Source of the DNA: Botryllus schlosseri | Taxonomy: Eukaryota | Assembly (NCBI GenBank): GCA_051294905.1 | Contig: CM119372.1 | Location: 9,860,001 to 9,924,000, forward strand | Reading direction: 5' to 3' | Length of the DNA: 64,000 nt | Shown here: piece after piece, positions 35,126 through 63,989 of the stretch | Numbering within the stretch: the stretch's first letter is position 1 | Layout of the letters: every line of letters begins with the position of its first letter | Program-made: the position numbers and the translations under genes | Notes under the pieces: generated by a model | Told to the model about the DNA's origin: nothing | The model's input: only the letters and a program-made list of their open reading frames with translations | Database searches by the model: none

Positions 35126-35130
35126 AAATC

Positions 35131-38100
35131 ATGCAATGGAACTGCCGCGGGATTTACCGAAAATTGAACGAGCTGAAAAAATATGTTTTAGACATGCCTG
35201 CGAAACCAGATCTGATTGCCCTGCAGGAGACGCATCTTATCACTAAATATTCACCGAAAATTCACGGATACACCCTATTAAGAAAAGATCGAAACATACA
35301 CGGCGGTGGCATATGCTTTTTTATTAGAAACGGTATACCTTACGTTGAATTACCAATAGAACAGATAAGCCCAATGGAGGCACAAGCGCTCAACATCCAA
35401 GGTCTAACAATCATGAACGTCTATATCCCTCCGAATAGGAACATCTCTCGCTCGTTGATGCATAGATGCTTCAACTACCTCGGTTCCAAATTTATATTAG
35501 TCGGGGATTTCAATGCCCACCATCCTCTCTGGGGAAGCAACTCTATGAACACGTGTGGAAGACATCTCCATTACTTCATCGATATCAACGATATGGTCGT
35601 GTTAAACACAACGTCGCCAACTAGAATAGACCTATCTCTTCCGAACCCGGGTCGCACCTCAGTATTGGATCTAGTCATGACCTCAAAATGCCTGGCGGCG
35701 AAAGTAACTACCGAAGTCACGGAAAATCTATTTGGCAGCGACCATTACGTGATCTTGAGTCATCTTGATCACGCGATCAGCGTTGCAGATGATTTCCACA
35801 GGTCTTGGTCGCTGAAGAAAGCAAATTGGGACAATTTCAGTCAAATGTGTGAACAAATGTTGATCTCCGAAAGAGAAGAGCCCCCAACTTCGATTGAAGC
35901 ACTTTCGCGATCCATAATAGCAGCAGCAAACGCTAGCATCCCGCTAACCAAACCCTTTAGAAAACCAAGCGTTCCCTGGTGGAACTCGGAGTGCTGTAAA
36001 GCAGTCAGGCTAAAACGGGCAGCGTTCCTTAAAATGAAGCGTACATTCGATATTCACGATGTCGTAAACTTCAAACGTCGCCGCGCCGCCACTAGAAAGA
36101 CCATCCAAATCGCCAAAAGAAACTATTGGCAGTCGTTTTGCAGCTCACTCGATCGAACCGCTAGTGTATCAAAGATCTGGCACGTTATTCGAGCGATGTC
36201 AGGAAATCGGACTTGGAACAACATCAACTCACTCAAATGCGGTCGTGATGTAGCTACTGACAGGAAACAAATAGCTAACGAGCTCGCTAGTCACTTTGCC
36301 TCAGTTAGTGGAAATCGACATTTGGAAGAGTCGTTTAAGACCAGACGAGCAACGTTCGAATCTGAGAATCTACCATCGATTCTACAAGAAACTACGCATA
36401 ACAATGAATTTAATTCGCCCTTCTCAATGGAGGAACTAATGAGGGTTGTGCGTCAGCGAAAGGGTGCTGCACCCGGAAGTGATAAAATCTGTCACGCAAT
36501 GATAAAGCATCTTTCTCCACCGTGCATGCGTATACTGTTGCAAGCACTGAACAACATTTGGTCTGATGGAGAGTGTCCACCATCATGGAAGCACTCCTTA
36601 GTGGTCCCGATACTAAAAAAAGGCAAAATAGCGACCGAAGCAGCCTCGTATAGACCTATCTCACTTACAAGCGATATGTGCAAAATTATGGAACGCTTGA
36701 TATGCAATCGGTTATGGTGGTGGCTGGAAACTAACAACCTCCTGCACCCTGCCCAGTGCGGCTTTCGACCCCGCAGATCGACCAGAGACTGCATTATCTC
36801 TTTACATGATGAAGTTTATAAGGCCGTTTCGAACAAGAGATATACCCTAGCGGTATTTTTAGATTTGGAAAAAGCCTATGACAGGGTATGGCAGGGAGCA
36901 ATAGTGTATAAACTCCATAGTCTTGGTATTCGCGGTAGTTCGTTACGTTGGTTGAACTCCTTCCTTAAACATCGCTCATTTCAAGTCAGAAATTTAGGTC
37001 AGCTGTCTGATACTTTCCATACGACAAATGGCACACCACAAGGAAGTATTTTAAGCCCAGTTTTGTTTGCAATTATGATGAATGACTTACCCGTAGAAGC
37101 CACTTGTCATGTCAACCTATACGCAGACGATATATGTATTTACGATTCAAACTTGAATGCGTTGGACCTCCAGCAAAATATACAGCACTCCTTGAATAAG
37201 GTTGCTAATTGGTGTAAAAAGTGGGGATTGAAAATAAACTTGAGCAAATCGGCTGCCATGCTATTCACGAGACGGCGCAAGCCCGCAAATTTTGAGCTAT
37301 CTCTCGATGGGTCGCGGATCCCGTTCGAAAGAGAATTCCGGTATCTTGGCATCACGTTTGATTCTAGACTTACCTATCGGCAACACTCCCGTCAAGTAGC
37401 TGAAAAATGTAGCAAGCGCCTGAATATTCTACGGTGTCTGCGAGGCACATCCTGGGGTGCGTCTACGTCATGCATGATATTACTTTATAGAGCCATTATT
37501 CGCTCCATAATGGAATATGGATTCGAGGCATATTTTATAGCACCGAAGTATGTCAGTCAAACCATACAGAAGATACAAAACTCTGCCCTAAGGCTCTGTA
37601 GTGGGGCAATGATTAGCACCCCAACGATCGCGCTACAGACTTTTTGTAACGAATTACCGATACATCTCCGGCACCTGCAAGCATGCGCCGCATACCGGTG
37701 CACAATATTGTGCCAACCTAGACACCATTGCTTATCGGTAACACAACACTCCTGGCACGAAATTTTTCCAGACTCGGAAAATTTCAAGACTTTCAATATG
37801 ATATCTAATATAGACCCGCTCAGAAACATAAAACTCACCCGAATTCAACCCGCTTCTGTGCCCCCATGGATTCCTTTGAAAATTTCAGTAGACCTAAGTC
37901 TTGGCTCTAAGACCTTGAACATTGAACACCCCGATGCGATCAGAATTGAGTGCGAGGAGTATATGTCTACCCGCTACAATCATCATTTGGCTATATATAC
38001 TGACGGTTCAAAAACTGACCAGGGATGCGGTGCCAGTTACTACATCCCAACTCTTGGTGTCTCTTTCAATCTTTCCTTGAGTAGTTTAAAAAGTGTGTAC

Positions 38101-38835
38101 TCTGCAGAGCTTATCGCCATCAAGGAAAGCCTGTTGTGGGTATGCAATAACTGCCCATCAAACTCAAATATTGCCATTTTTACAGACAGTCAAAGTGCGA
38201 CCAAAGCCATCGAACAAAGACTCAACGAAGGCAACATGGTTATCGATGACATCATCCAGTGTATTGCTCGCCTCTCGTCAAGCGGCAGCCGCACAACAAT
38301 TATATGGATCCCGGCTCACAAAGGAATAGTAAACAACGAAGTGGCGGATAGGCTTGCTAAAGCTGCAGCGAACATTGTCAACAATGGGATGGAAGAGATT
38401 TCGCTGACGCTTAGCGAATGCAAATCCATGATATCAGACTTCTGTCGCACAAAATGGAAAAAGGAGATACGGGATCAGGAATCAAGCTCCAGATATGTTC
38501 GCCTGGTGAATTTGGTCGGTGCAACCTCCCAGCTACACGAACTGACTCAGCGTGAAAACTCTATCCTTATTCGGCTTCAAACAGGTCACTGTCGACTAAA
38601 TGCACACCTGCACCGAATTGGCCAGCATGACAGTGGTCTCTGTGAACGATGCCACGTGCCCGAAACGTTAGAACACTTCATATTTACATGCACGCGTTAC
38701 CGATCACAAAGAGGTTACCTACTCGGTAGGTGTAATCTACAACAACTTCCAACGGACCTTCACGTACTACTGAACAATCCTATAATGGTACATCCAATAA
38801 TAGATTATGTGATATTGACCGGAAGGGGAATATAA
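35131..38835 (+). CDS. LINE ORF2: AP endonuclease - reverse transcriptase - RNase H - C-terminal zinc finger
   Basis: APE motifs QWNCRG, LQETH, GDFNAHH, SDH; RT motifs YRPISL, FLDLEKAYD, GTPQGSILSP, YADD; RNase H YTDGS, FTDS, WIPAHKG..NEVAD; CERC..H....C. First ATG at 35131 (the ORF track starts at TTG 35122). Confidence 0.95.
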   Translation: MQWNCRGIYRKLNELKKYVLDMPAKPDLIALQETHLITKYSPKIHGYTLLRKDRNIHGGGICFFIRNGIPYVELPIEQISPMEAQALNIQGLTIMNVYIPPNRNISRSLMHRCFNYLGSKFILVGDFNAHHPLWGSNSMNTCGRHLHYFIDINDMVVLNTTSPTRIDLSLPNPGRTSVLDLVMTSKCLAAKVTTEVTENLFGSDHYVILSHLDHAISVADDFHRSWSLKKANWDNFSQMCEQMLISEREEPPTSIEALSRSIIAAANASIPLTKPFRKPSVPWWNSECCKAVRLKRAAFLKMKRTFDIHDVVNFKRRRAATRKTIQIAKRNYWQSFCSSLDRTASVSKIWHVIRAMSGNRTWNNINSLKCGRDVATDRKQIANELASHFASVSGNRHLEESFKTRRATFESENLPSILQETTHNNEFNSPFSMEELMRVVRQRKGAAPGSDKICHAMIKHLSPPCMRILLQALNNIWSDGECPPSWKHSLVVPILKKGKIATEAASYRPISLTSDMCKIMERLICNRLWWWLETNNLLHPAQCGFRPRRSTRDCIISLHDEVYKAVSNKRYTLAVFLDLEKAYDRVWQGAIVYKLHSLGIRGSSLRWLNSFLKHRSFQVRNLGQLSDTFHTTNGTPQGSILSPVLFAIMMNDLPVEATCHVNLYADDICIYDSNLNALDLQQNIQHSLNKVANWCKKWGLKINLSKSAAMLFTRRRKPANFELSLDGSRIPFEREFRYLGITFDSRLTYRQHSRQVAEKCSKRLNILRCLRGTSWGASTSCMILLYRAIIRSIMEYGFEAYFIAPKYVSQTIQKIQNSALRLCSGAMISTPTIALQTFCNELPIHLRHLQACAAYRCTILCQPRHHCLSVTQHSWHEIFPDSENFKTFNMISNIDPLRNIKLTRIQPASVPPWIPLKISVDLSLGSKTLNIEHPDAIRIECEEYMSTRYNHHLAIYTDGSKTDQGCGASYYIPTLGVSFNLSLSSLKSVYSAELIAIKESLLWVCNNCPSNSNIAIFTDSQSATKAIEQRLNEGNMVIDDIIQCIARLSSSGSRTTIIWIPAHKGIVNNEVADRLAKAAANIVNNGMEEISLTLSECKSMISDFCRTKWKKEIRDQESSSRYVRLVNLVGATSQLHELTQRENSILIRLQTGHCRLNAHLHRIGQHDSGLCERCHVPETLEHFIFTCTRYRSQRGYLLGRCNLQQLPTDLHVLLNNPIMVHPIIDYVILTGRGI

Positions 38836-40335: not shown

Positions 40336-41440
40336 CTATAAATTATATATGCTTTTTTGTTGAGGGGGGGACGTATGCATTCCAAAATCAAGCTTATCTA
40401 GAGAGAATTTTCAAGTAAATTAAATCTTTCGAGAATACTCTATAATTTTTGTTGGTTTACGAAATACTATTGAGTCCCCCCGAGCTCCCTCCCCACCCTA
40501 TTGGGAAATTTGGGGTGCGGCAGTCATGGACCCGGTGAGAATGCAATTGGTTGGGTGCGATAAATCGTCCTCTATAAAAATGGGCAATGGGTACATTATG
40601 ACGTAACAAGCAAATGACGCATCTTTTTTAAATGGGGTTTGTTATCTCATTAGGCCTTTTCAGCTTTCCAATATAACTTCCAAAATGCAAAATAAATGTA
40701 ATCGTGAGTAATCGTGATTACTTTTCCAATGTAATCGTAATCGTAATCGACTACTACCTGATTTTGCTGTAATCGTAATCGTAATCGCGTCATTCGGAAG
40801 TAATCGTAATCGCAATCGATTACATTCATGAAGTAATCACCCCATGTCTGATCCAAATTCTGAGAAGCATGTGGGAAGCTGATGACCATAAAAGGTCATC
40901 ATTGGCTGGGCCGAAGATGATAGCCTTTTTAGTCATGAGCATCATGTAGGTCCGTTTTATTGACCTCTTGTTTAGTCATCAACTTCCCAGATCCCGCACT
41001 CAGGGTGCTAGGATGCCACAAACTAATTATCAAGTTCAGAGGGTGACGCGAGGTCACAAAGCATGAGAACCACTGGATTAGAGAGATATCATGAGCCCAT
41101 CTTCTCGCGCAGTAGCGAAATAGAGTAAGTCTACTGCAACCGTAAATCATGTGTCTGATGATGCAAAATTGTTGCTGGTCTCCAAAGGGTCTTCTTCAGC
41201 CATACGCAATATACAGATGGGGATGAATAAAAGGGATTTGCCTGCCAGAGACTGACCTGAGTTATAATAGAATTAGACTAATCACCAGGTTGTTCTAGGA
41301 TCATCATAGGACATTTCGTTTCAGTCTCATCGTGGTGATTGATGTCTTACTGCTCAGTTGCAGTTTCGTAATTCATCGTTTTCGTCCTTGCCGATTTTTA
41401 GAAAACAGTTGAAACATTGCCTTATACTTTCTTTGCAACC

Positions 41441-44406
41441 ATGAACCGAACCATGACTTCATTCACTGATTCAACAGTATCATCAACAATCGCCAATGCA
41501 ACAGGAGATGTGACTATACCATCCCGTAAGAAATGTATATAATCTATATATTGTGTTTTGCAATGAATTATTGAATATAGAACGTCACATAACGAGATAG
41601 CCTGAATTTTACAGCCGATACAGCAGTCACTTTCTTTTATAGAAGCTCCGTAAAATTTTATAGAACATAGATTTAAGTCAGACCTGGGCAAAGTGCGGCC
41701 CGCGAAGCCATTCTGTGCGGCCAGCGAAACGTTGCTTGGAATTCAAGAGATAAAACATGCTTTTTGAATGACTAAAACCGTAGGCTGTATAAGGAAATTC
41801 GTTTACTTTGAAGCCTGTTCATTAATATGGCACGATGACGCTGCCTACGTACCTCGCATGCGTAATCCAAATTCCAAATAAAGGCAATATGGCAAAATAC
41901 GAGTAGCAATTGGAGTTACAAGAAATCACTCTTTCCCTGTAGTTTGATCCAAACCTTCTTTTTTTGCCATTGTCACATTACGCATCATACGGCATGTGTC
42001 TCAAATTGTTACGTGATACGTTTCCGAATCCCTAATTCGTAAAACAAGTCAATCAGTGCTCGCGATTACTATATGACTCATTATATCTATCGCCCATAAT
42101 GGATTAACGAGCATGCCAAAAAAGAAACCCGCAAACTGAAATTCAAAGAAGGTGTAAACTTCAAAGCACTAAATATTTTTTTGTTGGAGTCAGAGGTAAG
42201 ACCTTCCTTCTAGTGTTTGCAGAGCACGTCGCCAAGATTAAGGATTTTAATTAATGTCGGTCTTATGACAAAAAACACGAAACACTGGGTCAATGGAGGG
42301 CAGAGTTCAGAAAAACTGCAAGCTTCGCTCAACATCAAGGCTATCTGCACAGTGAACACTGCTAGGAAGGCAGCGACCAAGAAAATAAGCTTCGTACTCT
42401 ATTGCATATACAATTCAGTGTAGGGGTTCTCGAACTGGGGGGGGGGGCGTGAAATCATCAGTAGTGGGCGCGAAGCCGAGGTTTAATGATTTTTTTTTCG
42501 CGTTACGCGCGATTTACCCCCAGCTTACAGTTATATTGCTCTGTGTAATTGTCCGACTTTGATATTTCAGAATTAACTCATCAACAGCCATAAACTTCCA
42601 TGTCATCAAACTATCCGTTGGGATTGCTAGCATTCTGATTGCACTTTTAAAAATTTTGTGACATCATGATAAGGGGCACGAAATTTTCACTATCATAAAG
42701 GGAGGCTTGCCTAAAAAAGTTTGAGAACCTCTGTTTTAGAATCTTAATAGAAGAGCGTGGATAGGGGTTTAAAGAGAGTTAAAAGGTATCATGTTTAACA
42801 TTATTTCGAATCATGACGGCAAATATATATATTTTTTAATTAACCGTCCCCTTTTCGTTACCTGACCTGAACACATTCACTGAGCAGCATATATTAACAA
42901 TGTAATTTAGAAATGAAATTGAAATACGCTGGAGAATATAGCTAAAAAAATTTCACTCGGCCCGCCAACGTATTTTCTACTTCTCATTGGCCCGCGGAGG
43001 AAAATAATTGCTCACCCCTGGTTTAAGTGCATGTGAATCAGCGACCTGGAACCTGATGGTATTGAATATGAGCGTACTAAATCAATAATAGCTATGGCCA
43101 CATAAACATGTATGATAGTATTTAACCAGTCTTATATCGATAAGTTTTGTATACGCCTACATACTAATACAATCTGTGATTCGATCTGTTTTCAGGCCCT
43201 TCGAAAAGCCGTTCGACGAGACAGTAGCATTCGTGATTGGGTTTATTTTATTTACTTTCATGTTACTCGGAATAGTCTTTAACGCAATAACTGTTGCTGT
43301 GATCATAAAATACGAAAAATTGAGGTATACGATTCCTATCATGCAAGTTGGTTTCTACAGTTTTCCGACTATATATTTTGCTTTCCAGAAACATATTTTC
43401 CATTTTTATATTTTCCTTGTGTCTGTCGGACATGTTGTCAGCATTGATAAGTGCACTCTACTGGTATACGAGAACTCTTGGATTCGACGAGTGGAAATTG
43501 CCAGGTTTCTTATGCAAGGTAATTATTTCACGCATGACGTCTTTTTACTGACACTCATTTCGTTCTTTGTGATACACATCATCACAGTTCTACTGGGCAG
43601 CAGACATTACGACGCCTTTTGCAACGGCTATGCATATCATGGCATTCGGAGTATTCCGTTTGATCTCTGTGTCGTGTTCACACGTTACGATAAAGCTCCA
43701 AAACAAGTTTGCTGTTGTAAGTTACTGAATATTCATTCATTCAATAATTAATAACTCATAATTGGGGCGATTTTTTTTACTTAAAGACGGAAAATTTTGA
43801 CCTAAAAATGAAAATTTCGACATTTTTTACCTTAAAAAACTTAATTTTGACAATATGTAGCCCTGACATATGTAAATTAGGTGTTTTCGCGCATAATCTG
43901 AATTGCAGCTTATCGCCCTAATGATATGGATTGTGAGCTTAGGGTGTGGCTCATACGATCAAATTATGATGTTGTTTATTTTTCCAATCTGAAGACGGAT
44001 CCGAAAATATGCCATATCGGGAAAACTGATAAATAAAATAAGTGGTCTGATCATATTATGGAAGTACGAATCCCAATCACAAATTACACTGGTACTGGTA
44101 TTATTTATTCGAAATAAATCATTCGTTTACTAGCACAATAAAGTCAGTATACCTTATTGGATTATTATGTTGATTAACAGGTACGGACAGTACACGATGT
44201 TCAAGAAGATCCGGTTTTCTCTGTTCCTCTCTATACCCTTGATTCTTGTCTTATTTATATCTGTTCTTACTTGCCGTCAGGTGTAGGCTACTACTCTCGC
44301 CTCCATCACACCAGTACAAATAAAAAGCTGAAAAAAGAAAAACAAGCCATCCTTCAATTAACCCTAATCGTGGTATCGTTTATGCAGGGATACCTCCCGT
44401 CTACAG
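41441..44406 (+). pseudogene. GPCR copy 3, pseudogene
   Basis: Exon 1 41441-41525 has a 2-bp insertion relative to copy 4 (wrong phase); exons 43196-43324, 43389-43518 and 43588-43716 are open; exon 5 (from 43909) loses homology after LIALMIWIVSLGCG; exon 6 44181-44406 has an in-frame TAG; exon 7 not found before the duplication junction. Confidence 0.88.
41679..43020 (-). mobile_element. Non-autonomous hAT element (CAGGGGTGGGCAA family), inverted, in intron 1 of GPCR-3
   Basis: Reverse homolog of 15903-17154 including the nested MITE; TSD ATTTAAGT/GTTTAAGT; empty site in the paralog at ~46550. Confidence 0.88.
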
Positions 44407-46307
44407 GTAAATGTCAATTTGACTGAGTTGGTATGTGTATATATGGACTCCACTGAATGTTTAGTGCTTGTTGATTTTTAATTCAATCGCCAATTTCGAG
44501 GGTCCGTGAGCTTACAAGTAGTTCGTCACTTGAAGACGGGTAGATTGATGAAAGCATAGCGCACAATACAAAAGAGTCATGCACTAAAATACAAGGAAGG
44601 ATAAATTTCAGAGAAATCGACCTCACTATAAATGGCTTTTTGGTAATGAATCATGTTTCGTAGAACTCCATAGCGTCTAACTGGTTGCCTGTGGCTTCTC
44701 TCATTTCATATATGCCATAGACGTAGAACGAATACATAGACGTAGACGTAGAAGACTAGCATTAGAATTGCATTTCATTAGATGTGTGATGGTTGAGTCG
44801 AGCGATGTTAATAAACTCAGATTTGGGTCGCGCTCTAAAGAGTTGGAGAACCACAGCTATAGTACTGTACTACTATTACTACTACTACAACAACAAAACT
44901 ATACTATAGGCTGTGCAAGTGTGCATAACGTACATGCTTTATTGTTTTCACGAGTATAGTAGGACTGAAATATCGCTGTAAATAGTTTTGCAACTAAATT
45001 CGTGATTTACGACCAACGAAATATTGGTTCGACATTCAGAGAGTATTTTATTCCTAGATTGCTAAGTTAAACATATATTTATATATATGCAAATTGCCTA
45101 TGCATATAAGACGTAACTTTTGTCTCGTCTTTTACTGGTGAGTGAGAAAACTATGAGGGATAGTCGTATGCGTTTGGTAGGAAGAGAAAAAGGGAATATA
45201 GCAGTAACAGTAGCCCATCACGCTATGAGGGTAGGAAATACTGAGACATTAAACATATTCAAAATAAAGAATACAGAATCCGATTCATACAAGATCGAAT
45301 GGGAAGGGAAAATTAAAAACAAAACACGTAAGCGAGCAAGTCCAACCGCTCATATGCATTTTTTAAAGTAGATATAAAGGCGAACTTCCGATTATACCGA
45401 TTCATTGCGGCGAGCAGGACCTCGATGATTTTGACTAGAAAGCCTGCTTTGAACCATATAGTTCTCATTCAAGAGGATGGTGCACGGACTGTCCATTGCG
45501 CAATTCAGTCTTAGGAGGGTCGAAGCAGCACTTCGTAAGCCTCTCCTTCAAAAAGCATTGGTCCTGGCCCCCATAGCTTGATCAATCGAGTTTTGAGGGG
45601 TTTCACCTCACAGACGCCCCTTTCTACTTTCTCAGTTGCAATATGACTAGCTTCCGTCACGGTTATCAGACGGATACTGCTTGGCGCAGTGGTTCTAAAC
45701 GGGGCTGCCGCGAGAAAATGATGTTCTGATGGTTGCCGCCGATTTATCAGCAATTAGGCACATCCAAATTCTGAGCAGCATGTGGGAAGCTGATGACCAT
45801 AAAAGGCCATATTTGGCTGGGCCGAAAGTGATGATCTTTTTATAGATCATCATCATGTAGTTCCGTTTTAATGACCTTTTGTTTAGTCACCAAGCTCCCT
45901 TTCAGAAGGTGGCGCGAGGTCAGTAAGGATGAGAATCCATGGTTTAGAGAGATATCATGAGCGTATCTTCTCGCGCAGCAGTGAAGTTAAGTAAGCCTGT
46001 TGCAACCGTAAACCATATGATGGTGATGCAAAATTGTTGCTGGTCTCCCAAGGTTCTTCGATCAGCCACGAAATATACAGATGGGGATGAATAAAAGGGA
46101 TTTGCCGACGGAAGACTGGCCTGAGTTATAATAGAATTCGACCAACCACCAGGTTGTTGTAGGATCATCATGGGACATTTCGTTTCAGTCTCATCGCAGT
46201 GATTGATGTCTGGCTGTTCAGTTGCAGTTTCGTAATGCATCGTTTCCGTCCTAGCTAATTTCTAAAAGAAAACAGTTGAACCATTACCTTATACTTTCTT
46301 TGCAACC

Positions 46308-48848
46308 ATGAACAGAACCATGACTCTATTCACTGATTCATCAGTATCATCAACAATCGCCAATGTAACAGGAGATGTGACTACCATCACGTAAGAAATG
46401 TATATAATCTTTATATTGTGTTTTGCAATGAATTATTGAATATAGAACAACTTCACATAACGAGATAGCCTGAATTTTACTGCCTCAAACCCAATGATAC
46501 AGTAGTCTCTTTCTTTTATAGAAGCTCCGTAAATTCTATAGAACGTAGGTGTAAGTGCATGTGAATCAGCGACCTGGAATCTAATGGTATTGGATATGAG
46601 TGTACTAAATCAGTGCTCTTCAACCTTTTTCGTCGTAGTACACCCTTTTAACGTTTACTCGAAACTCGCACACCCCTAACCAGATAACTCACTGATTGCG
46701 TATGGTACGCCTAATCGAGGGGTGTTCACTGTTCAACCTCCTTGTTATTCACGGCCACGCTTCGATTCCAAATATAGCATACGGCAGCATTCCGGCGGAG
46801 ACTCGTCATGGCTAATCTCTAGGTCATTTACTCATGTTAAATTGGCTACTGGGAACTTCACACTGCGGAGGGACTTGTGGTGTACTGTGCCATCACTGAT
46901 TTTTTAAGATATACTTTACGTATAAAAGTATATATTTGTAGCAGAATAACAACTCCGCAGGCTTACTAAAATTGCGAGTATAAATGTTAGGAAAGTTTTT
47001 TGACTCCCTTTCGAGTCGCGCAAAGCGCGAAAATATTTTACATCTGGAAAATGTATTTCGTCGATAATATTGGTGGTTCCATATATTACTGCCAAATATT
47101 TGTTCATTTTTAGCCCAGGTGATCAGATTAAACGATAGAGCTGACTGATGTCTTCGGAAATTTTGGGCACAAAATGAATGATGATGCAAACTCAGGTTTT
47201 TATTAATCACGTTGTTGCATATTGTCATTTTTGACCTCCCATCAGGATTGTAGGCGTAATCAAAATATGTTATATTGCAATCGGGCAAACGTACAAGACA
47301 AAACCTTCATTCGTGAGATGCACACGATTTCACACGTTTTCTTTATGGGGTTCATCATTTTCCTCTTCGGTTCGCATTTGTACGGTGGACTCATAATACA
47401 TTATTATATTAAAAACGTATAATCCTAGTCACCCTGAATCGCGTCGAGCGTGAATAAAATTTTCAAGTTTAAATTCTCTCAAAGATTTGGAAACCAATCC
47501 GTCAATTATAATTGCATATTGACGTGCGCCAACACACACTAATTTGATTATGCGTTGAGGGTCGCATAATTATGTTTAACGTCGTACAACTGCAGGTTGT
47601 CCTCTTCTGGCATGTTGCAATATTGATGAACAAGGCTGCAACGTATTTGAAATGCTAACTACTAATCAGGGCTCGAGGTTACCGGACCACCATCTAGCAG
47701 AGAGGTTTCCAAACGCGACCCCTCGCCCCCCCCCCTTCCCCCCGAGACACCCTGGCTTCGCCCCTGCCACGATGTAAACTGCTCTATTTATAGGCTTCTC
47801 GCAGAAAGTACCAATTCAATATTATTGAGCTATCGCGATAGTTTCCTCGAGAATCATTATCGACAGATCTCGCAAGCGGAACACATGTGAACTCCATCCT
47901 GTTTTACTCCAAAAGAAACCAATAATAAATCCATTACCAAATTTTAAATGAGAATAAACATTTGCATATGATATCACAAGAGGAATGAAACTAAGAAGCT
48001 TACCCGCACGATTGTACGATATTGCACACCCGGTCAACATGTTTTGAAGCATAAACTTGCCTGTTTATTTTGATGGCTGTAGTCATCGGTCTATATTAAT
48101 TCGGAACTGGTACATCCCTGTACACCCCATCTAAGTGGTACACCCTTTTAAAATTTTGGTACACCCTAGGCTGTACGATACACCCGGTTGAAGAGCACTG
48201 CGTAGTAAATGAATAATGGCCATGCCAAACATAAACATGTACGATAGTATGTTACCTGTCTTATATCGATAAGTTTTGTATATGCTTACATATTAATACC
48301 ATCTAATTATGCGATCTGTTTTCAGGCCCTACGAAAAGCCGTTCGACGAGAGAGTAACATTCGTGATTGGATTTATATTATTTACCTTCATGTTCTTCGG
48401 AATAGTCCTTAACGCAATAACTGTTGCTGTAATCATAAAATACGAAAAATTGAGGTATACGATTCCTATATCCTGCACGTTGGTTTCTACAGTTGTCGGG
48501 CCATATATTTTGCATTCCAGAAACATATTTTCCATTTTTATATTTTCCTTGTGTCTGTCGGACATGTTGTCAGCATTGATAAGTCCTCTCTACTGGTATA
48601 TGAGAACTCTTGGATTCGACGAGTGGAAACTACCAGGTTTCTTATGCAAGGTAAATAATTCACACATGACGTCTTTTTACTGACACTTATTTCGTTCTAT
48701 ATGATACACATCATCACAGTTTTACTGGGCAGCAGACATCACGACGTCTTTTGCAACGGCAATGCATATCGTGGCATTCGGAGTATTCCGTTTGATCTCC
48801 GTGTCGTGTCCACACGTTACGGCAAAACTCCAAAACAAGGTTGCTGTT
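46308..48848 (+). CDS. GPCR copy 4, exons 1-4 open; 3' exons not in window (truncated, or a very long TE-filled intron 4)
   Basis: Exons 46308-46390 (MNRTMTLFTDSSVSSTIANVTGDVTTI), 48326-48454, 48521-48650 and 48720-48848 (GVFRLISV) splice in frame; homology to copy 3 stops at ~49022, just before the exon 5 acceptor. Confidence 0.75.
46611..48200. mobile_element. Non-autonomous hAT-type element in intron 1 of GPCR-4
   Basis: 15-bp perfect TIR CAGTGCTCTTCAACC / GGTTGAAGAGCACTG; flanks TGTACTAAAT / CGTAGTAAAT; empty site at ~43075. Confidence 0.85.
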
Positions 48849-49720: not shown

Positions 49721-50456
49721 TCTCACGACAGATCAGATCCAGGTTTACCTTTAATTGTAGGTTGTAGCTGGGAGTGCACTAAGTTTGTTCATTTTCTTGG
49801 TCGACTGCGCCGAAACACTCTTCGCACACACGCGTTGCTGACAGGAAGGAAGATAATGATGCTAACTCGAGTCATTTCCGGTAAAGATGTTCATCCGTTT
49901 GGTCTCCGGTTCATTTTTGCAGAACACATCAGCTGGAATCTTCTTGAGCAGAGTGCTAACAGCCGATATGCCTCATCGAACAGCTCATCTTTCATTGTCA
50001 TTAGAGTATCAATTTGCTTCGCCAACCCCTTCACTTCCTCGTACTCGATTCCTTGATCTTTCAGCTGGGTCCAGTTGTATTCCAAGGTAATGGTGTAGAA
50101 CTCCTGGAAGCTCGCTTTGAGAACCTTACCAATATGTTAATCTTGACGAATCCAATTATCTCTGCCAGTTCTGGAAACAATGCATATGACTTTTGCAGGA
50201 ATAACAGTGGTTTATTAAAGAGCAAGAGAGCGATGTGGAGGAATCATACGATGATCAGTGACTCTGCTGATTTAAAGAAATCCTTCTATATTCTTGGTGG
50301 ATGTTTCAGCGTAGAATATGCGCTTTCAGTGGTCTCCAGAGATCGATCATTCGCCCAAGTACAGCATCAAGTGCGGCTCATCGAGTCGGCGTGTGAGTTG
50401 GCAGAGTCGAATAGTTGCTATCAAGTTCCTCACAAAAATGCTTGAGCGTCATCGCC

Positions 50457-50620
50457 TGTACTGAAAACGTACTACGACCTCAACGCAAGTTTGGTTTTTA
50501 TTAACTAAATGAAGACTCAAGCAACTAAACGCGGTAAACAAAACACTCAATATATAGGCAGGGTAAGATGCGGGTAATCAACACAATTGGTGTGATCACG
50601 AAGAAACAATAATCACCACA
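50457..50620 (-). repeat. 3' LTR
   Basis: Identical to 54546-54709. Confidence 0.95.
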
Positions 50621-50693
50621 ATCACCCCTCCTTAAAAATAAGACTACACTATAAATAATCGTGACAAATTTTTGAGCTACAAACAAAAACAAT

Positions 50694-53093
50694 TTAGGCC
50701 CAATCTCCGTATCTATCAGGAGGCCGACGGATGCGAGTAGATCGACGGAGAGATACTGCAGGCATCGGACTGCCATCGACGTCGTCTGAGCGATCTACGT
50801 GAGAATCGGTGTTCGTGCGTTCTTTCTCAACTGATCGAATCGATTCTTCAACCACTTGTTCAGGCTCGCGCTCCGGAATCTCCATATCTTCCTCAGTTTC
50901 GGACTTTGAACGCAAGGATTCTGTTCGTTCACGAGGAGGACACGGAGCAAGGTCTTTCACAGATACCGTACTTTCACGACCGTCTCGGCGCTTTACAAGA
51001 GCATACTTTGGATTTACTTCAATGAGTTCGACATATTCGCAGAGAGGATCGCTTTTATTTCGGACGAATTTCCTCAGGAGCGCATCTTTGCTGGATATCA
51101 TCCAATCTGGAATAGATTGACCGTGCATCGATCGACGACAAAATGAAAAGAAACGTTCATGCGGAGTGACTCCGGTGGCAGTACATAATAATGACCTTAC
51201 AGAGTGCAAGGCGTCTGCTAACACCACTTCCCAAGCGCTCTCTGGTAATTTGTGAGATGCGAGTAAAAGTTTAATTGACCTCCATATCGTCTGATTAGCC
51301 CGCTCACATTGACTGTTACCCGTAGGGTGATAAGGTGTGGTACGACTGGTCGCAACACCTTTTCGGATCAAAAACTCGTGGACATCTTTAGAGAGAAAAG
51401 ACTTTCCCCTGTCACTATGTACATAGCCAGGTAATCCAAACAAGGCGAACAACGACGATAAACAGCTAATAACAGTCTGCGACGTCATATCGGCGCATGG
51501 GAAGACGAAAGGGAAACGACTGAATTCGTCGATTACAACAAGCAAGTAAGGTCGCTTTCCAGCGACTGGTCCCTTGAAATCTATACTCACGCGATCCCAT
51601 GCCCTAATAGCTTTTACGAGAGTATAAGCTGCTGGTCTGAAAAATCGAGGTTTAATTTCAGCACATTCTGGGCAATCTCGGCACTCCTTCTTTATTTCTT
51701 CTGTGGAAAAAGGTAAACATTTAGCTCGAACGAAGTGCATCATCCGTCGCACTCCTGGGTGCGACAGTGTTACGTGAATATTCCGTAAGCTCGATCCTGT
51801 AAAGGCACAAACTCTCGACATCGAATCGGCGGCTACGTTGTCTTTACCTGGTCGATGTTTGATGCGGGATTTGAATGCACTTAATTCGAGTTTCCACAAG
51901 GACAATTTTGTATTCTTTATCTTACTGCGATGAGATTTCGCGAATATGAAGGAAAGTGCCTTTTGATCCGTGATCAAGGTAAACGGTTTTATATGAAGTA
52001 AATATCCCCACTTACGTACTGCCTCAATAATGGCAGCTGCTTCTTTTTCTACGGCAGCGTACCTCTTCTCATGCTTGTTCAGCGTTCTGTGCGCAAACGC
52101 TACCGGCCTCCCTCTTTGGCTGAGTATTGCAGCAATGGCGAATTCAGAAGCATCACACTCGATAGTAAATTCTTCATCCTCCAGAATACAGCCGAGACTT
52201 GACCGTAGGAGATCGTTCTTCAATTGCCGAAAAGCCATCAAGGCTTCGCTGCTTAAGGGAAATGTCAAATCGTTGTTACATAGCGGACCAATTTTACCGG
52301 AAAAATTCGATATCCACTTCGAGTAGTAAGAAAACATTCCCAGACAACGTTTCAAACTTTTTCCATCAGAAGGCGCAGGTAAGTCAACTAGAGGCTTCAG
52401 ATGAGCAGGATCGGGCTTTATGGAGTCGTGAGCGACGAGGTGTCCCAAAATGGACAATTCCTTAACACAGAACTTGCACTTGTTAACATTCAGAGTTAGA
52501 TCACAAACCTTCGCGGCGGTTATAAAAGCTTCCAAACGTTCATCATGCTGTTGCTTTGTATCGCCATAAATGGTTATGTCGTCTAGATAAGCGACAGTGC
52601 CTTTCAGTCCGTTGCCTTCTATAAATCTGTCAATAAAGCGTTGAAACGCAGCAACTCCATTAGTGACTCCGAAGGGAAGCCTGCAAAATTGATATAGACG
52701 ACCACAAGCTTCGAATGCAGTAAAAGGCTTATCATTACTTCCAAGAGGTACCTGATGGTAAGCGGACTTCAAATCTATCGCACTGTACCATTCACCTCGA
52801 GCTACTTCATTTACGACGTTTTCAATCTTAGGAAGCGGATACGCATCTAGCGGAGTATAGCGGTTGATTGTTTGAGAGTAATCAACGACCAATCTCTTCT
52901 TGTGTCTGGAGTCCTTTACCACCAATACCTGAGCTCTCCACGGAGACGAGGAAGGTTCAATCACTCCAGATTCCAAAAGTTTTGAGACTTCGTCACGTAT
53001 AAACACCTTGTCATCATTACTGTAGTTTCTGGACTTGGTAGCCAAGGGCTGCACGTTTCCATCTACAAACCGAAAAATACACGGGCGTCTCAT
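50694..53093 (-). CDS. pol: Gypsy pol: reverse transcriptase, RNase H, integrase
   Basis: SPWRAQV, DLKSAYHQ, LPFG, YLDD; CDAS RNase H; H..HPG..C..C zinc finger; DFKG / HSDRG / QCER DDE triad; probably translated fused to the upstream ORF. Confidence 0.93.
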   Translation of the reverse strand: MRRPCIFRFVDGNVQPLATKSRNYSNDDKVFIRDEVSKLLESGVIEPSSSPWRAQVLVVKDSRHKKRLVVDYSQTINRYTPLDAYPLPKIENVVNEVARGEWYSAIDLKSAYHQVPLGSNDKPFTAFEACGRLYQFCRLPFGVTNGVAAFQRFIDRFIEGNGLKGTVAYLDDITIYGDTKQQHDERLEAFITAAKVCDLTLNVNKCKFCVKELSILGHLVAHDSIKPDPAHLKPLVDLPAPSDGKSLKRCLGMFSYYSKWISNFSGKIGPLCNNDLTFPLSSEALMAFRQLKNDLLRSSLGCILEDEEFTIECDASEFAIAAILSQRGRPVAFAHRTLNKHEKRYAAVEKEAAAIIEAVRKWGYLLHIKPFTLITDQKALSFIFAKSHRSKIKNTKLSLWKLELSAFKSRIKHRPGKDNVAADSMSRVCAFTGSSLRNIHVTLSHPGVRRMMHFVRAKCLPFSTEEIKKECRDCPECAEIKPRFFRPAAYTLVKAIRAWDRVSIDFKGPVAGKRPYLLVVIDEFSRFPFVFPCADMTSQTVISCLSSLFALFGLPGYVHSDRGKSFLSKDVHEFLIRKGVATSRTTPYHPTGNSQCERANQTIWRSIKLLLASHKLPESAWEVVLADALHSVRSLLCTATGVTPHERFFSFCRRSMHGQSIPDWMISSKDALLRKFVRNKSDPLCEYVELIEVNPKYALVKRRDGRESTVSVKDLAPCPPRERTESLRSKSETEEDMEIPEREPEQVVEESIRSVEKERTNTDSHVDRSDDVDGSPMPAVSLRRSTRIRRPPDRYGDWA

Positions 53094-54501
53094 CCACTTT
53101 AGCAGCTATCACATTACAGGCATCAGTTGCTGCTGCTGTATCAGCGCTCCCGTCAACGCTTTCACTAGTGACCATCCCATCGCCACCGCCACTTGCTCTG
53201 CCGCTGTTGATGGTTAGATCTCCATCGCCACTGAATTCAAAAACAACTCTTTTATGCTTTTCGAAGAAATTATAGCCTAGAACCAAATCGCAACAAAGAT
53301 CGTCGAGAACGCCGAACCGAACAGACTTATATATTCGATCACCCAAATCCACAGGAACACAAACGAAACCGTTGACTTCGGCGGCGAATTGTCCTGAAGC
53401 GAGTTTGATCATGGTTTGCAGTCCTCTGCCTTTCAACCCAAGCGAAGCGGCTACTTTAGAATCCATGTAATTTTCCCAAGCTCCGGAATCCAGTAAGGCA
53501 CGCAACTTTGCTTTACGAATGTAAGCGGGCACAGTAGTGTTGGACAGCGAGGAACAGCCATTAGATGCAAGAATGGACGAGATTCGAGGTTCAGTGACAG
53601 ACGCAGCTGTTTTCACTACTTGGGATCGACACATTTTACTGAAATGTCCTTGCTTTTGGCACTTGAAACACCTCACGTACCGAGCAGGGCATAGGGCACG
53701 GTCTAAAACGTGACTGTTACCACAAAATATACACTTCGACGATTGACGACGGACTACCGCGACTTCACTTACGTCATTATTCGAAGATGTGGTACAATCC
53801 GTGCGAGCCACGCTATTCACATTAGCGATCTCGCTCGCACCATTATTCGCAGCAATGTGTGCGGATGCGCAATCTATGTGAGCCATGCTATTCACAGTAG
53901 CGGTGGTCTCATATGAACGAGAGAAGCACTCTGCTTTCTCCATAGTGTCTGCAACTTGAAGCGCTTTATCCAAAGATAGTTCCTCGTGTTCCAGAAGACG
54001 AAGACGTATATTTGCTGATCGCAATCCAGAAATGAACGCATCGCGTACAGATTCTTCCAAATGCGTTTCTGCGGTAACCTGCTTGAACTCGCATTTCTTG
54101 CCCAATGTTAACAATTCTTGTGCAAATTCAGATACGCTCTCACTCGTCATTTGTTTTCTGGCCGAGAGGTTATGACGAGCGTAAATAGTATTGTTCTTCT
54201 TGACATACATCTTCTTCAATTTCTCCATTGCTTCAAGGTAGTTCTCCTTATCTTCGATATACGAAAATATCTCAGCAGACATGTATCCACCCATAATAGC
54301 GATCTTATTGATGGCGGAAAGTGCGGGTGAATCCGACCCACTCCCAGACGATGCGGAGCCGGCATTTCTTGATTGCTCAACGGCTTCAATATAGCTCTCC
54401 AGCATACGCTTCCAATGGTTGAAAACCTTCTGCGAATCCACCGCACGTGGTAACACTTCCAACACTGGTACGCGGATGAGCTTCTCGTTGTAAGCAGCCA
54501 T
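53017..54501 (-). CDS. gag: Gypsy gag-protease ORF
   Basis: 494 aa; RDAFISGL capsid-like region, zinc knuckles CIFCGNSH and CFKCQKQGHFSKMC, aspartic protease LLDSGA ... LVLG. Confidence 0.9.
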   Translation of the reverse strand: MAAYNEKLIRVPVLEVLPRAVDSQKVFNHWKRMLESYIEAVEQSRNAGSASSGSGSDSPALSAINKIAIMGGYMSAEIFSYIEDKENYLEAMEKLKKMYVKKNNTIYARHNLSARKQMTSESVSEFAQELLTLGKKCEFKQVTAETHLEESVRDAFISGLRSANIRLRLLEHEELSLDKALQVADTMEKAECFSRSYETTATVNSMAHIDCASAHIAANNGASEIANVNSVARTDCTTSSNNDVSEVAVVRRQSSKCIFCGNSHVLDRALCPARYVRCFKCQKQGHFSKMCRSQVVKTAASVTEPRISSILASNGCSSLSNTTVPAYIRKAKLRALLDSGAWENYMDSKVAASLGLKGRGLQTMIKLASGQFAAEVNGFVCVPVDLGDRIYKSVRFGVLDDLCCDLVLGYNFFEKHKRVVFEFSGDGDLTINSGRASGGGDGMVTSESVDGSADTAAATDACNVIAAKVDETPVYFSVCRWKRAALGYQVQKLQ

Positions 54502-54545
54502 GTCTTTTACGGAAAAGACGACAACGTTCGTTTAGTTAATAAAAT

Positions 54546-54709
54546 TGTACTGAAAACGTACTACGACCTCAACGCAAGTTTGGTTTTTATTAACTAAATG
54601 AAGACTCAAGCAACTAAACGCGGTAAACAAAACACTCAATATATAGGCAGGGTAAGATGCGGGTAATCAACACAATTGGTGTGATCACGAAGAAACAATA
54701 ATCACCACA
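54546..54709 (-). repeat. 5' LTR with TATA-like and AATAAA motifs
   Basis: Identical to 50457-50620; minus-strand TATATA at ~54645 and AATAAA at ~54591. Confidence 0.95.
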
Positions 54710-55229
54710 TCGCCCTATCAGTTTTACTTTTGAAATGGCTAGCAATTTTCAATTCGATTGTTTATATGTCAAGTGTGAGGCGCTCTGATCCCTTCGCTGT
54801 TGCGTTATGCAAAATATGAGCAGGGCAGCCGACTGGGATCAGATGCAATATTTGCTCATTGAGGCGAGAGAAGACGTTGTTTTTTTCCACAATGCTGTGA
54901 TCCTGCAAAAATTCACTGGTGCATTATCGGCAGGATGACAGCTGCTTCATGTCTTGGCCATTCTCTTGAACAGAGGAGAGAATGAAGTTCGTGATCTGTG
55001 CCGAGGTCTCGCCTGGCATCGATCGCAGGTCAGGAAGACGCACTCCCACTCCAACTGATGACTAGGTAGGAAGGAAATCTTGGATTTTTCTACTTTTATA
55101 CAGCGCTTAAATAGATAATTGACAATGATGAACACTCATGTCGTTCTCAGTTATACTATGAATATTAACATGACCTGATGCGAGAACTTTGTTCGTTAAA
55201 AATCAGTTTGTCAAGCCTCCTACTTTTGC

Positions 55230-58993: not shown

Positions 58994-61900
58994 TCAGATA
59001 TGTCTACTCAAAACTACAAATTCTACGACCGCAATAACCATGTGCGGATCAGTCAACAGACATTTCAAGGTAAATCTCACACTGCTACGTTCGGCTACGT
59101 TTTTTAAATATTGTCTCTGGTGATCGTATCGACGACACGTCAGTAGAAAATGTTCGACAGTTTCAGGTACGCTGCACGTTTCGCAGAGACCACTGTCGTG
59201 ACAACCCATGCGTTGGAGGTGTGAGTTTAATTTACAGTGTCCAGTTTGCAGTCGCAATATAATTGCTGATTCCCTCCGCGACAAATTTCGTGGACGGGTA
59301 ATGCATGAGAACGGTGCGTGCATACGAAGGTACGCAGAGTCTCGATCGATGCCATTTAATTCCGACATCCACTTCTCAGTACATAATCCATTAGTGTATG
59401 ACTTCATTTCGGGAAGTGACAGAATCGTTCCGTTTTCGTCGTTGGGTCCAGGTGTGCTAGCGGCCAGTTTTGCGAGTTTATCCGCCCTTTCATTGCCACG
59501 TATTCCTGTGTGAGCGGGAATCCAAGTAAACGTGACTTGTACTCCATTTGTTGCCAAGTCTCTGCAAAGTAAGATAATAGTTTCAATTAAACTATTCGAA
59601 TTGCCATTGTTTTTGATCGACGTCAATGCGCTTTTACTGTCGGAGAATATCGCCAACCGTTTGGACGGCATACATGCGCTGCTCGCCCAATTTAGACTTA
59701 ACATAATTGCGTATAATTCCGAGGAAAATATTGATTGATTGGCGTCACGTGAGGCCCAATGAGAATATTGAACTTCGTCGACCCAAAATGCTGCACCACC
59801 GCGCGTATTTGTTTTCGAACCGTCGGTGTATACTTTCGTATAAGTGCGATAACGCGTCGCTATGTAACGTTCGCATTCCTGACGTATGTATTCAGGATGG
59901 TGTGCCCCGGAGGTGATCAGCGTCAATTTAAAATCGACAACAAGCTGTTGATTCACCCAGGGCGGCCATGCACTCGGTATCCTAGACTGTAAAATAATAT
60001 TTTGAATAGAAGCGGATCTGGTTTTCATATGAAACGTCATAAACTGAGGCGAGTCGGGAAAAAATTCGTGCCAAGATTCTCGAGTTAATGATATGCAGGG
60101 GTGGTTTGGAGTTGCCAGAATCATACTGCGATACTTATAACACGCTTGAAGTTGTCTTATGTGAATTGGTGGTTCCCCGCAGGAATGCTGCAGGGCGTAG
60201 ACTGGCGTGCTCATCATAGCTCCACAACATATTCTCAGAGCTGTGTTCTGAATTTTCTGTATTGCTTGTATGATGTAGAGTGGCGAAAATAAATACGCTT
60301 CACAGCCATACTCAATGACGGATCTAATTAGTGCTCTATATACAGCTAGAAGGCAAGGCTTGCTCGCACCCCATGATGTCCCGCTTAATACCCTCAAAAT
60401 GTTCAATCTTTTAGTACATTTGTCCACGACCGCATCCTTGTGGAGTCGGTACGATAGGCGCGAATCAAATTTGATTCCAAGATATTTATGTTGCTTATTT
60501 ATTGAGAGTGGTGTACCTCCTATCTGAAGGTTCACTTGCGGTAGTTTCCTGCGCTTGGAGAATATGACTGCAGCTGATTTTTTCACATTGACACGAAGTC
60601 CCCATTTCGTTGTCCACTTTAGCACTTCATCCAAGGATTTTTGGATATTTTTCGCCAATGCTGTAATGTTGAGTCCTGTTTCCCATATACATGCATCGTC
60701 CGCAAATAGATTCATTGTGCTGTTGACTGCTGTGGGGAGATCATTAATCATTGCGCTAAACAAAGTCGGACTTAACACACTACCCTGGGGAGTGCCATTT
60801 TCTAGAATGTAGGTATTAGATAGACTCTGTCCTACGCGTACTTGGAAAGTGCGATTGCTGATAAATGAATATATCCATTTCAAGATGTTGCCGGATATTC
60901 CAAGCTTGTGAAGCTTGTAGATCACACCTTCTCGCCATACCAAGTCATACGCTTTCTGAAAATCAAGAAATACTGCTATTGTTGAGCGTTTGTTCCAAAT
61001 TCCTTTGTATATTTCATCATGGAGAGCCATTATGCAGTCTGTTGTCGATCTTCGAGCCCGGAAACCACTTTGCACGGGAGTTATCAGACCTTTGCTCTCC
61101 AGAAACCAATTCAGACGATTCGCTATCATTCTCTCCATTACTTTGCACGTGGTGTTCGTTAACGATATGGGTCGATATGACGCTGGGTCGGACGTGACTT
61201 TGCCCTCTTTTAGCAATGGAATGATTATCGCGTGCCGCCAGTGATCCGGGCACTGCCCATCTTCCCAATATCTATTGAAGATTGACAGCAGATAATTTCG
61301 GCTACATCGGTTAAGATTTCTTATCATCTGATAGCAAATTTCATCGGGTCCTGGAGATGTACTTTTCCCTCGACTTAATGCCCTTTCCCACTCATTCATG
61401 GTGAAAGGCTCATTAATACCGTCGTCTGCTGGATTTTCTGTTTGCATAATTGGTATGATGTATTCCTTTATGAACTCTTGTCGTCTGACCTTAAACTGCG
61501 GATCGAGATTTTGGTCGCTACTAACCGACGCAAATTGTCCAGCAAGCGCGTTTGCTTTATCAGTGTTGTCTGTTAATTTAATGCCTTGGGACTTGAGACT
61601 ATTTATGACGTTCCATGTACGGGTTCCCATCATCGATCGTACTGTTCGCCAAACCTTCGTTAATTTAGAATTGCTATTCAGTGATAGGCAGAAATTTTCC
61701 CAGTGTGATTTTTTGGCAGCTTGAATTGTTTTCCTTGTTTCTGCGCGTTGCTTCTTGAACGCAACCACTGAATCGATATGAAAGGATAGCTTCATTTTCG
61801 AAAACGCCGCTCGTTTACGACGAACTGCTCTGGAGCAGGATTCGTTCCACCAAGGAACACAGCTCTTTCTGTGAGGTTTTGATACAGGAATGCATGTTCT

Positions 61901-62694
61901 TGCCGCTTGTATGATTGCTTGGGAAGCATGTTCAATGGTATTATCACCCTTTTGAAGTCCAGACAATAATTCGTGTTCAGCAATTCGCCTATACCTGTCC
62001 CAATCTGCTTTGTGGAATGACCAAGACCGAAAGTGATTTTCTGGTATAGCGATTGGGATATTGATCGCGTTAAATATGACGAAGTGATCGCTACCAAGTA
62101 AGTGATCTGTGACCGTGGTTTCTATTTTGAGTGCGATATCTTTTGATGCAATGCATAGGTCTAATAGAGATGTGACACCAGAATCCGACGCGATGTTGAT
62201 GCGAGTGCCTGCCGTGACGTTGGTAATCACAAAATCATTGCCGTCTATCACTTCGTACAGGTTCCGCCCATATCTGTTTGTACTGCTGCTACCCCATAAT
62301 GGATGGTGCGCATTAAAATCGCCTACAATAATTGATTTCGAATACAGGGAGTTGAAGCATGCTTCTAGAGTGGTCTTAGAAAGTAATCGATTTGGTGGAG
62401 CGTACAGGTTCGTGATGTTGATCCCTTCAACCTTGATAACTGTGCTTCTATCGGGTCCGATCCGGTCAGTTCGCTTTCTTCGTACTGTAACATTTCCTTG
62501 ATAAATAAGCAGACCCCACCCCCATGGATATCTCGGTCTTTTCGAATAAGCTTATATCCACGGATTTTCGGCTTGTAACGGGACACCAAGTGTGACTCTT
62601 GAAGTGCTATAATCTGCGGCTCTTCCGCTAAGCCTTCTAAAAAATGTTTCAGCTCATTGATCTTTCTATATATGCCGCGGCAATTCCATTGCAT
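58994..62694 (-). CDS. LINE ORF2 (APE-RT-RNase H) with one frameshift near 62440
   Basis: N-terminus MQWNCRG...EAQ in ORF 62365-62694 continues in another frame as IKVEGINITNLYAPP...GDFNAHH into the 1085-aa ORF; FADD RT motif, YTDGS RNase H. Confidence 0.88.
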
Positions 62695-63989
62695 TATTGT
62701 GAAGAACGTCCTTTGTTCTTCCCCGACTTTTTCTGGACCTCTTGTACGTCTTTCGCGAGGGGTGGACCCCCACCCTCAGTCATATTCGTGATGCTGTAGT
62801 TGGGCATATTTTCGATTGTTGGCTGGCTCGTTTGTTGACTGTTATGTGACTCTAGGCACTCTAACTTATCCACCTCATTTCCTCCACTAAATGTTAGATC
62901 GATCGCACCTCCAATATCGACTTCAGGAGTCGCCATCATGGCATTGAGTTGGTCAACTTGGTTCCCGTTACTCTGACTGAATGCGTGATTTTTTGTCACC
63001 GGGATACCAAGATTTTCGCCCGCTGATTTTTCTATGATTGCTTCAATGTCGATGCTTCGTTTTTCTATAAAGCTTGTTAGCGTGTTTTTCATGACTTCGG
63101 CAATGAAATTAAAGATACCAGAAATTGGGATCGTGATATGATCCGCTCTCTCCTGCACTACTGAGCTCTGTTGCTGAGATACGTTTCGGCGATACTGGTT
63201 TTGGCCTGGTAGGCCTGGTACGGCGTTTTTATTCGACACGTCGGGAGTAATATCCGCAATTCTATACGAAGTAGCGCTCGGTTTCGGCAATGGTGGGAAT
63301 TCACTGAGAGGTGGCACTACCTGATCACTAATTTCGTTTTGCAACGTATTCCTTGCAGTCCAATAGTCTATGTTGGCGTTCGCCATTATTTTCTGAATCC
63401 TAACTTCCTGTTGATACCTTGGGCAACCAGTGTATCGAGCAGAGTGAGAATTGCCGCAGTTAACGCAGTGGAGAACAGTACTATCACACTTGTCATGCGT
63501 GTGGCGGTTTCCGCATTTAGAGCAACGCTGCGCGCTTCGACAATGCTTCGATTTATGACCGAAGCGATTGCAATTATAGCATCTAGTGGGTGGTTGATTG
63601 TATACGCGTGGCCTGAATCGTAAGAATCCTATCTTAACCACGGCTGGCAAGATTGTCGACGCGAAGCACAAAAGCACTGATTTACCCCGTATAGTTTCGC
63701 CGTCAGCGCGATAGGAGAATCTACGCGCGAACGTAACATGTTGGTTTGCCAACGAATGCAATATCTCCTCATCCGACATTTCTAGTGGAACGTTTGTAAT
63801 AACTCCTTTCACTTCTACTGGTCTGGTGTTGTATAATTCCGTTCGCACCTCTATTGGATTTGTGCTCGATCCGAGATCGGTGCACGACAGTAACTTAGAA
63901 ACTTGATCACTATTCGCACATTTTACACAGATATCCCCAGAAGGAAGGACTTTGACATCCTTGTAATTACCGCCTAGAACTGCGTACAA
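62694..63989 (-). CDS. LINE ORF1 gag-like protein, 5' partial
   Basis: Three CCHC knuckles (CYNCNRFGHKSKHC, CSKCGNRH, CVNCGNSH); homologous to 33803-35125; start lies beyond the window. Confidence 0.9.
   Translation of the reverse strand: MYAVLGGNYKDVKVLPSGDICVKCANSDQVSKLLSCTDLGSSTNPIEVRTELYNTRPVEVKGVITNVPLEMSDEEILHSLANQHVTFARRFSYRADGETIRGKSVLLCFASTILPAVVKIGFLRFRPRVYNQPPTRCYNCNRFGHKSKHCRSAQRCSKCGNRHTHDKCDSTVLHCVNCGNSHSARYTGCPRYQQEVRIQKIMANANIDYWTARNTLQNEISDQVVPPLSEFPPLPKPSATSYRIADITPDVSNKNAVPGLPGQNQYRRNVSQQQSSVVQERADHITIPISGIFNFIAEVMKNTLTSFIEKRSIDIEAIIEKSAGENLGIPVTKNHAFSQSNGNQVDQLNAMMATPEVDIGGAIDLTFSGGNEVDKLECLESHNSQQTSQPTIENMPNYSITNMTEGGGPPLAKDVQEVQKKSGKNKGRSSQ

Follow-up and report, generated by a model that had tools for sequence, protein, structure and literature searches.

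Self-priming, in which a retrotransposon begins minus-strand DNA on its own RNA, has so far been shown in fission-yeast Tf1 and is known mainly from Tf1 relatives. The Tf1 primer reportedly stays attached. Bases 1 to 11 of the Tf1 RNA anneal to the primer site, and RNase H cleaves between bases 11 and 12 (PMC7175516). The fold of the Tf1 leader comprises three duplexes and is presented as a mark of the Tf1/sushi group (PMC10085805, PMC4600332, PMC5341516). In the literature compared here, self-priming is treated as a feature of Tf1/sushi chromoviruses, and it is predicted for a single Copia lineage of plants. These predictions concern the Copia TAR lineage of plants and also moss Tcn1, and their criterion is a complementarity to the LTR of at least 10 nt that starts 0-5 nt after the LTR (PMC6317226). 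Skipper is described as having neither a tRNA site nor an LTR complement (PMC5006619). Cigr-1 is listed in molluscs, and the cited listing makes no mention of primers (PMC6238403). Further comparison literature comprises PMC10886601, PMC6934838, PMC2836005, and PMC3670739.

The element described here lies in Botryllus schlosseri contig CM119372.1, within a stretch of 64,000 nucleotides that was analysed as a whole (the window) and to which the coordinates below refer. It resembles Tf1, Tf2, Tj1, and the Tf1/sushi group in being a Ty3/Gypsy element with no tRNA site, a primer site that directly follows the 5' LTR and is complementary to an LTR segment, and an additional stem next to the predicted cut (PMC7175516, PMC10085805, PMC4600332). 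It probably works like Tf1.

The Botryllus element and its primer site

The element is on the minus strand from 54709 to 50457 and is 4,253 bp long. Both LTRs (54546..54709 and 50457..50620) are 164 bp, identical, and bounded by TG...CA, and they are enclosed by a 5-bp target-site duplication, GGCGA, with its 5' copy at 54710..54714 and its 3' copy at 50452..50456. A polypurine tract is present at 50621..50633. The direct TG...CA repeats, the polypurine tract, and a duplication within the 4-6 bp range are as expected for Ty3/Gypsy, and so is the domain order protease-RT-RNase H-integrase, which defines that group (Metaviridae). The gag-protease frame (53017..54501, minus strand) has 494 aa and two zinc knuckles, and the RT-RNase H-integrase frame (50694..53093, minus strand) has 799 aa. 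This copy has identical LTRs but an interruption of its reading frame between protease and RT (53017-53093), and other family copies have a single open frame of up to 1279 codons. The RNase H catalytic residues are invariant in the 46 sequences compared. No chromodomain was found in the element at E<=0.1, in agreement with an earlier sequence-only reading of this DNA.

The window also contains other repeats and gene pieces. The flanks of the element (54715-55200 and 49900-50450) read by eye like a decayed DNA transposase, possibly of the hAT type, with a CxxH-type motif near 54830. Two LINE-like elements (33803-38835 and 58994-63779) have a zinc-knuckle ORF1 and an RT frame with an RNase H-like end. 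Exon pieces that resemble seven-transmembrane receptors occur at 27403-28855 and 40851-48768, together with tandem duplications of about 5 kb.

A single unpaired A (54545), which is A in 24/25 elements, separates the 5' LTR from the primer-binding site (54531..54544). This 14-mer, read from 54544 to 54531, is the exact reverse complement of the LTR segment 54598-54585, which is the predicted 3' segment of the self-primer, with the cut predicted after 54585. TGG is absent from the first 12 nt after the 5' LTR, and no other primer site was found in the element sequence. Dinucleotide shuffling of the LTR gave a match of at least 14 nt in 1 of 20,000 trials, and after one mismatch the helix gains three further pairs. 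The sequence-only reading had pointed to this perfect LTR complement in place of a TGG, and its account is confirmed. The TATA-like box that it placed about 45 nt upstream of the LTR 14-mer is likewise present (54638..54645), has its first base, 54645, 47 nt ahead of the 14-mer, and is retained in family copies.

Folds from 4/4 candidate starts form the 14-nt helix, which closes a 40-nt loop. Two smaller proposals of the same reading fare less well in function than in sequence. A second, 9-nt partner of the primer site does exist (54612..54620), but a role for it is unsupported, and it was never used in the four folds, where the 14-mer wins each time. The hairpin ahead of the gag ATG (54502..54519) is also there, but it is not conserved across families, and a 20-nt deletion that removes it is common to 3/17 family 5' ends. 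Two of these three copies have both LTRs and target-site duplications; the hairpin is thus not needed in cis and is dispensable.

The genome search gave 63 matches to the family of the element. Among 17 distinct 5' ends compared by eye, the pairing is 14 perfect pairs in 10 and 13 in one. Uncompensated changes occur in six of the 17 and a compensated pair in none, and the variant primer site found in five would pair 18 nt perfectly with the usual LTR. In one family copy (L025, near 1165) the LTR is interrupted by a tRNA-like sequence, perhaps a SINE.

Complementarity and covariation in related families

The RT search of the genome found related families at 53-70% identity. Ten such elements were fetched, nine have an LTR pair, and all nine match their own LTR over 10-16 nt. 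Metagenome loci add to this set: 37 of 73 were analysed, of which four were too short and 33 long enough, the latter comprising 13 with an LTR pair, three placed by motif, and 17 without a usable LTR. Each of the 13 with an LTR pair matches its own LTR over 11-17 nt. No LTR pair was found at L138 or L139, and neither a single-protein scan of metagenomes nor an alignment scan of viral contigs gave a match.

The trait is lineage-wide. Over 25 elements the mean match is 13.9 nt to the own LTR versus 5.7 nt to the LTRs of other families, and the cross pairs that reach 10 nt (43/600) are among families with like primers. TGG occurs in the first 12 nt of none of the 25. Five recent Gypsy elements of other kinds from the same genome served as controls (L124-L128); all carry a TGG site 1-9 nt past the LTR, and their own-LTR match is only 3-5 nt. 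The lineage is like the plant Copia TAR elements and moss Tcn1 in that the same LTR-complementarity criterion predicts self-priming (PMC6317226), and unlike them in that those belong to another superfamily or to the chromoviruses and have plant hosts.

Covariation was assessed in 20 families. Left out were the sister copies L043, L062, L064, L076, L092, and L122, two of which have a point change within their A run, as well as L049, whose register differs. At positions 1-12 from the predicted primer end, 240/240 cells are paired (239 Watson-Crick and one G-U), in a register that was picked by best match yet always starts at a fixed base past the LTR end. By permutation, each of the 8 variable positions reaches P<=0.006 in the 20 families, and the variable positions reach P<=0.01 in the 15 pair-defined families, in tests that ignore relatedness. 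At positions 13-16 the values are 0.0002-0.05, relatedness again ignored, and past 16 the signal is gone. Complementarity is therefore present in the related families and is kept by matched changes, which supports the proposal of the sequence-only reading that the element primes without tRNA.

Across the lineage, 12-19 nt of the primer site are paired with a stretch of the LTR that lies 27-69 nt before its end. The helix starts 1-2 nt past the LTR end in every case and stops sharply, one base past that end. On the other side it ends abruptly before a conserved RCC (54582..54584 here), directly past the predicted cut. This RCC pairs with a later LTR GG in 15/20 families (here 54568-54566), and 5/20 have a weak stem within the loop (P<0.5). 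A WGY motif is conserved exactly 11 nt before the predicted cut. Compared with the three-duplex pretzel of Tf1, the lineage has one extra stem beside the cut, in those 15 families, and a third duplex of the Tf1 type was not seen in the folds. In a sister family (L049, L140) the paired segment differs, the spacer is 2 nt, and the RCC is missing, and self-complementarity still extends over 13 nt. L045/L046 are two tandem copies with one shared LTR.

The primer looks longer than the 11 nt of Tf1. Unlike that 5'-terminal 11-nt primer, covariation here extends to position 16 and copied stretches reach up to 28 nt. Covariation to position 16 suggests that the RNA starts at least 16 nt before the predicted cut. 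The TATA spacing points to a start perhaps at 54615, an initiator-like A inside the 9-nt second partner that lies 30 nt from the TATA box on the minus strand and would imply a 31-nt primer in this family; a TATA spacing common to the families was not found. A start at the A of 54595, which would give an 11-nt primer, agrees with the conserved WGY register and with the DPE-like GGTCG that this family has at +28 to +32. As the only start it is disfavoured by the covariation seen at positions 12-16. The 119 mapped reads, none of which cover 54320-54456, show no 5'-end pile-up.

RNA ends, fold-back insertions, and the primer

RNA reads locate the 3' end of the transcript. Untemplated poly(A) follows LTR position 141 (54569, or 50480 in the 3' LTR) in nine reads of run X21, among four runs mapped. 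This site is 17 nt after the AATAAA of the paired segment (54586..54591), and the mature 3' ends lie 16 nt past the segment itself. The junction of polypurine tract and LTR is spanned, in sense orientation, by 11 reads from two runs. The AATAAA in the paired segment is a working poly(A) signal in the 3' LTR of this family. By computation, a cut at the helix end would give a 40-nt strong-stop DNA with an overlap of 16 nt for the first strand transfer.

All of the sequence evidence fits any primer that has the sequence of the LTR segment. Such a primer could act in trans or be made by a host nuclease, from short 5'-LTR or solo-LTR transcripts trimmed to the helix end, and not by RNase H in cis; with a working poly(A) signal in the segment, such short LTR transcripts could exist. 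This origin is nevertheless improbable. Folding in cis is favoured, with a mean pair probability of 0.87-1.0 in 21 families, and the presence of a conserved RCC stem next to the cut hints at a junction that is recognised. Transcripts with the mature 3' end, 16 nt past the segment, could not prime uncut.

A helix that contains a poly(A) signal is also unlike Tf1/sushi elements, and it could be a regulatory hairpin that only hides the 5' signal, with some other, unrecognised primer at work. AATAAA or ATTAAA lies inside the helix in 12/21 families and functions in this one. The sequence-only reading had suggested such masking of the 5' AATAAA, and this part is plausible because the reads show that the hexamer works. 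As the whole story it fails, since masking is not the sole purpose of a helix that 9/21 families keep with the hexamer outside it (3/21) or absent (6/21). The start of the helix 1-2 nt past the LTR end in every family, at the point of necessary priming, and the lack of any other primer site in the element make a masking-only role very unlikely.

Priming by half of a host tRNA or by another small RNA, with the LTR match as a by-product, is extremely unlikely: half-tRNA priming does exist in Copia lineages (PMC6317226), and the tRNA check was a weak one, in which 73 genome matches of the 14-mer were compared by eye with the 63 tRNAs scored among 36,083 candidates, but no match overlaps a scored tRNA, Rfam gave nothing above threshold (one sub-threshold match is taken as chance), and the site differs among families, each time following the family's LTR, so that no single host tRNA can have it as its target.

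Aberrant insertions record contact between the two segments. An exact-pattern search found L142 (G000:C7, minus strand, bases 64-398 of the locus after reversal), which consists of the whole LTR, one A, and the LTR inverted from the paired segment to base 1. It is a 335-bp palindromic insertion with two U3 ends and a direct 5-bp target-site duplication. Its junction has five T, and the primer sites of the family have four. The same junction pattern was matched in 3/4 other families searched, and the fold-back search in family L035 found nothing. Two further insertions are internally deleted: L145 (G000:C11) has LTR and A, a perfect LTR-complement arm of 134 nt, and then a jump into RT, and L144 (G000:C3) has the same arrangement with a 28-nt arm. 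In all three, the LTR complement sets in at the cut register predicted above and goes on past the primer site. A fourth candidate, L146, was dropped as an LTR-overwritten primer site, being one base off the form in 7/10 family copies.

Plus-strand synthesis that ran onto an attached LTR-derived primer, or that snapped back on this helix, would leave such insertions. Plus-strand DNA that snaps back could also produce them with any primer. They show that the two segments come together in the predicted register while reverse transcription is under way; the identity of the primer does not follow from them alone.

Taken with the covariation, it is likely that this compact, chromodomain-less lineage of invertebrate Ty3/Gypsy elements primes minus-strand DNA with its own RNA, by way of a start site and a cleavage that we infer. 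Transcription would start upstream of the paired segment, with a distance to the segment's 3' end of at least 16 nt, and perhaps of 31 nt in this family. The 5' leader would fold back, and the same helix would hide the 5' AATAAA from the poly(A) machinery. The RNase H of the element would then cut at the junction of the helix and the conserved RCC stem, as that of Tf1 does. The 5' piece would prime the 40-nt strong-stop DNA, which would be transferred to the 3' end of the RNA by an overlap of only 16 nt. Plus-strand synthesis would copy the primer and in this way keep site and primer matched.

A lineage outside the chromoviruses

Homologs of the element are single-ORF proteins of about 1,200 aa, and those with names are proteins of Ciona, Trichinella, a psyllid, an isopod, and butterflies. 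Placed by protein alone, they nest among elements with self-complementary sites. The chromodomain PF00385 is found in 0/120 of the homologs listed and in 0/25 background proteins scanned. In the RT-RH tree the lineage is one branch (SH-aLRT 100), separate from the chromodomain-bearing elements (SH-aLRT 98) and also from the TGG-primed controls. The chromoviruses of this tree are algal, plant, and unnamed, a set without a named Tf1 or sushi sequence. One group of lineage plus chromoviruses is borderline rejected (p-AU 0.049). Unlike Tf1/sushi, the element has no chromodomain and invertebrate hosts, and its RT-RH is 27-34% identical to the chromodomain-bearing elements tested and stands outside their branch. 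By the tests made, it is not a Tf1/sushi member; the sequence-only reading had raised the placement of its RT in the Gypsy phylogeny.

Cigr-1 elements are about 4.2 kb long and have one long ORF. The lineage matches their marker set, which comprises two CCHC knuckles, a lost GPY/F, ILG, no chromodomain, and no env. Two knuckles are present in 89/98 homologs, and GPY/F is absent in 97/98 scorable ones. This is the combination given for the Cigr-1 clade of Ciona intestinalis and molluscs (PMC2774666; the Cigr-1 and CsRN1 rows are in the GyDB table of supplement 3). Ciona proteins nest in the lineage. The TANG protease flap of the Cigr-1 listing is not that of the Ciona homologs found; the flaps are xAS, xAT, or xAN, and TANG is absent from five Ciona homologs. 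In this comparison by marker table the lineage resembles Cigr-1 and is a candidate member of that clade.

Other clades do not fit. The single knuckle and the GPY/F of CsRN1 are not matched, and the LTR start TGTGGYG, listed for that clade (PMC3601003 table 3), occurs both in the lineage and in a TGG-primed outgroup. Troyka and the Kuafuorterviruses, described with a 3-bp target-site duplication, CG...CG ends, and xADD in RT (PMC12440569, PMC11673190), are excluded by the 5-bp duplication, the TG...CA ends, and YLDD. A PF24626 search of the genome gave no match anywhere, controls included.

What is new here is probable self-priming in a separate and widespread animal lineage. The literature searched, with subscription papers and Repbase Reports outside its scope, yielded no report of self-priming in this lineage. 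Repbase may have noted self-primed invertebrate Gypsy families; a prior note of this kind is rather unlikely. It is tentatively suggested, at somewhat less than even chances, that the trait arose independently of Tf1/sushi in a deep and widespread invertebrate lineage and with a different design. This design would comprise a capped primer of about 16-31 nt containing the poly(A) signal, one helix that serves for priming and for the silencing of 5' polyadenylation alike, transfer of a 40-nt strong-stop DNA by way of 16 nt, and the integration of palindromic mini-DNAs with two U3 ends as by-products.

If true, this is a second self-priming lineage of Ty3/Gypsy, present in tunicates, nematodes, insects, and crustaceans, and the switch away from tRNA has been made repeatedly. 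Such elements may be freed from the supply of tRNA and from silencing by tRNA fragments. It would also explain why LTR finders based on tRNA score them as being without a primer site. The very short leader would offer a simple system for the study of RNase H cleavage at an RNA-RNA junction and of the minimal homology for strand transfer.
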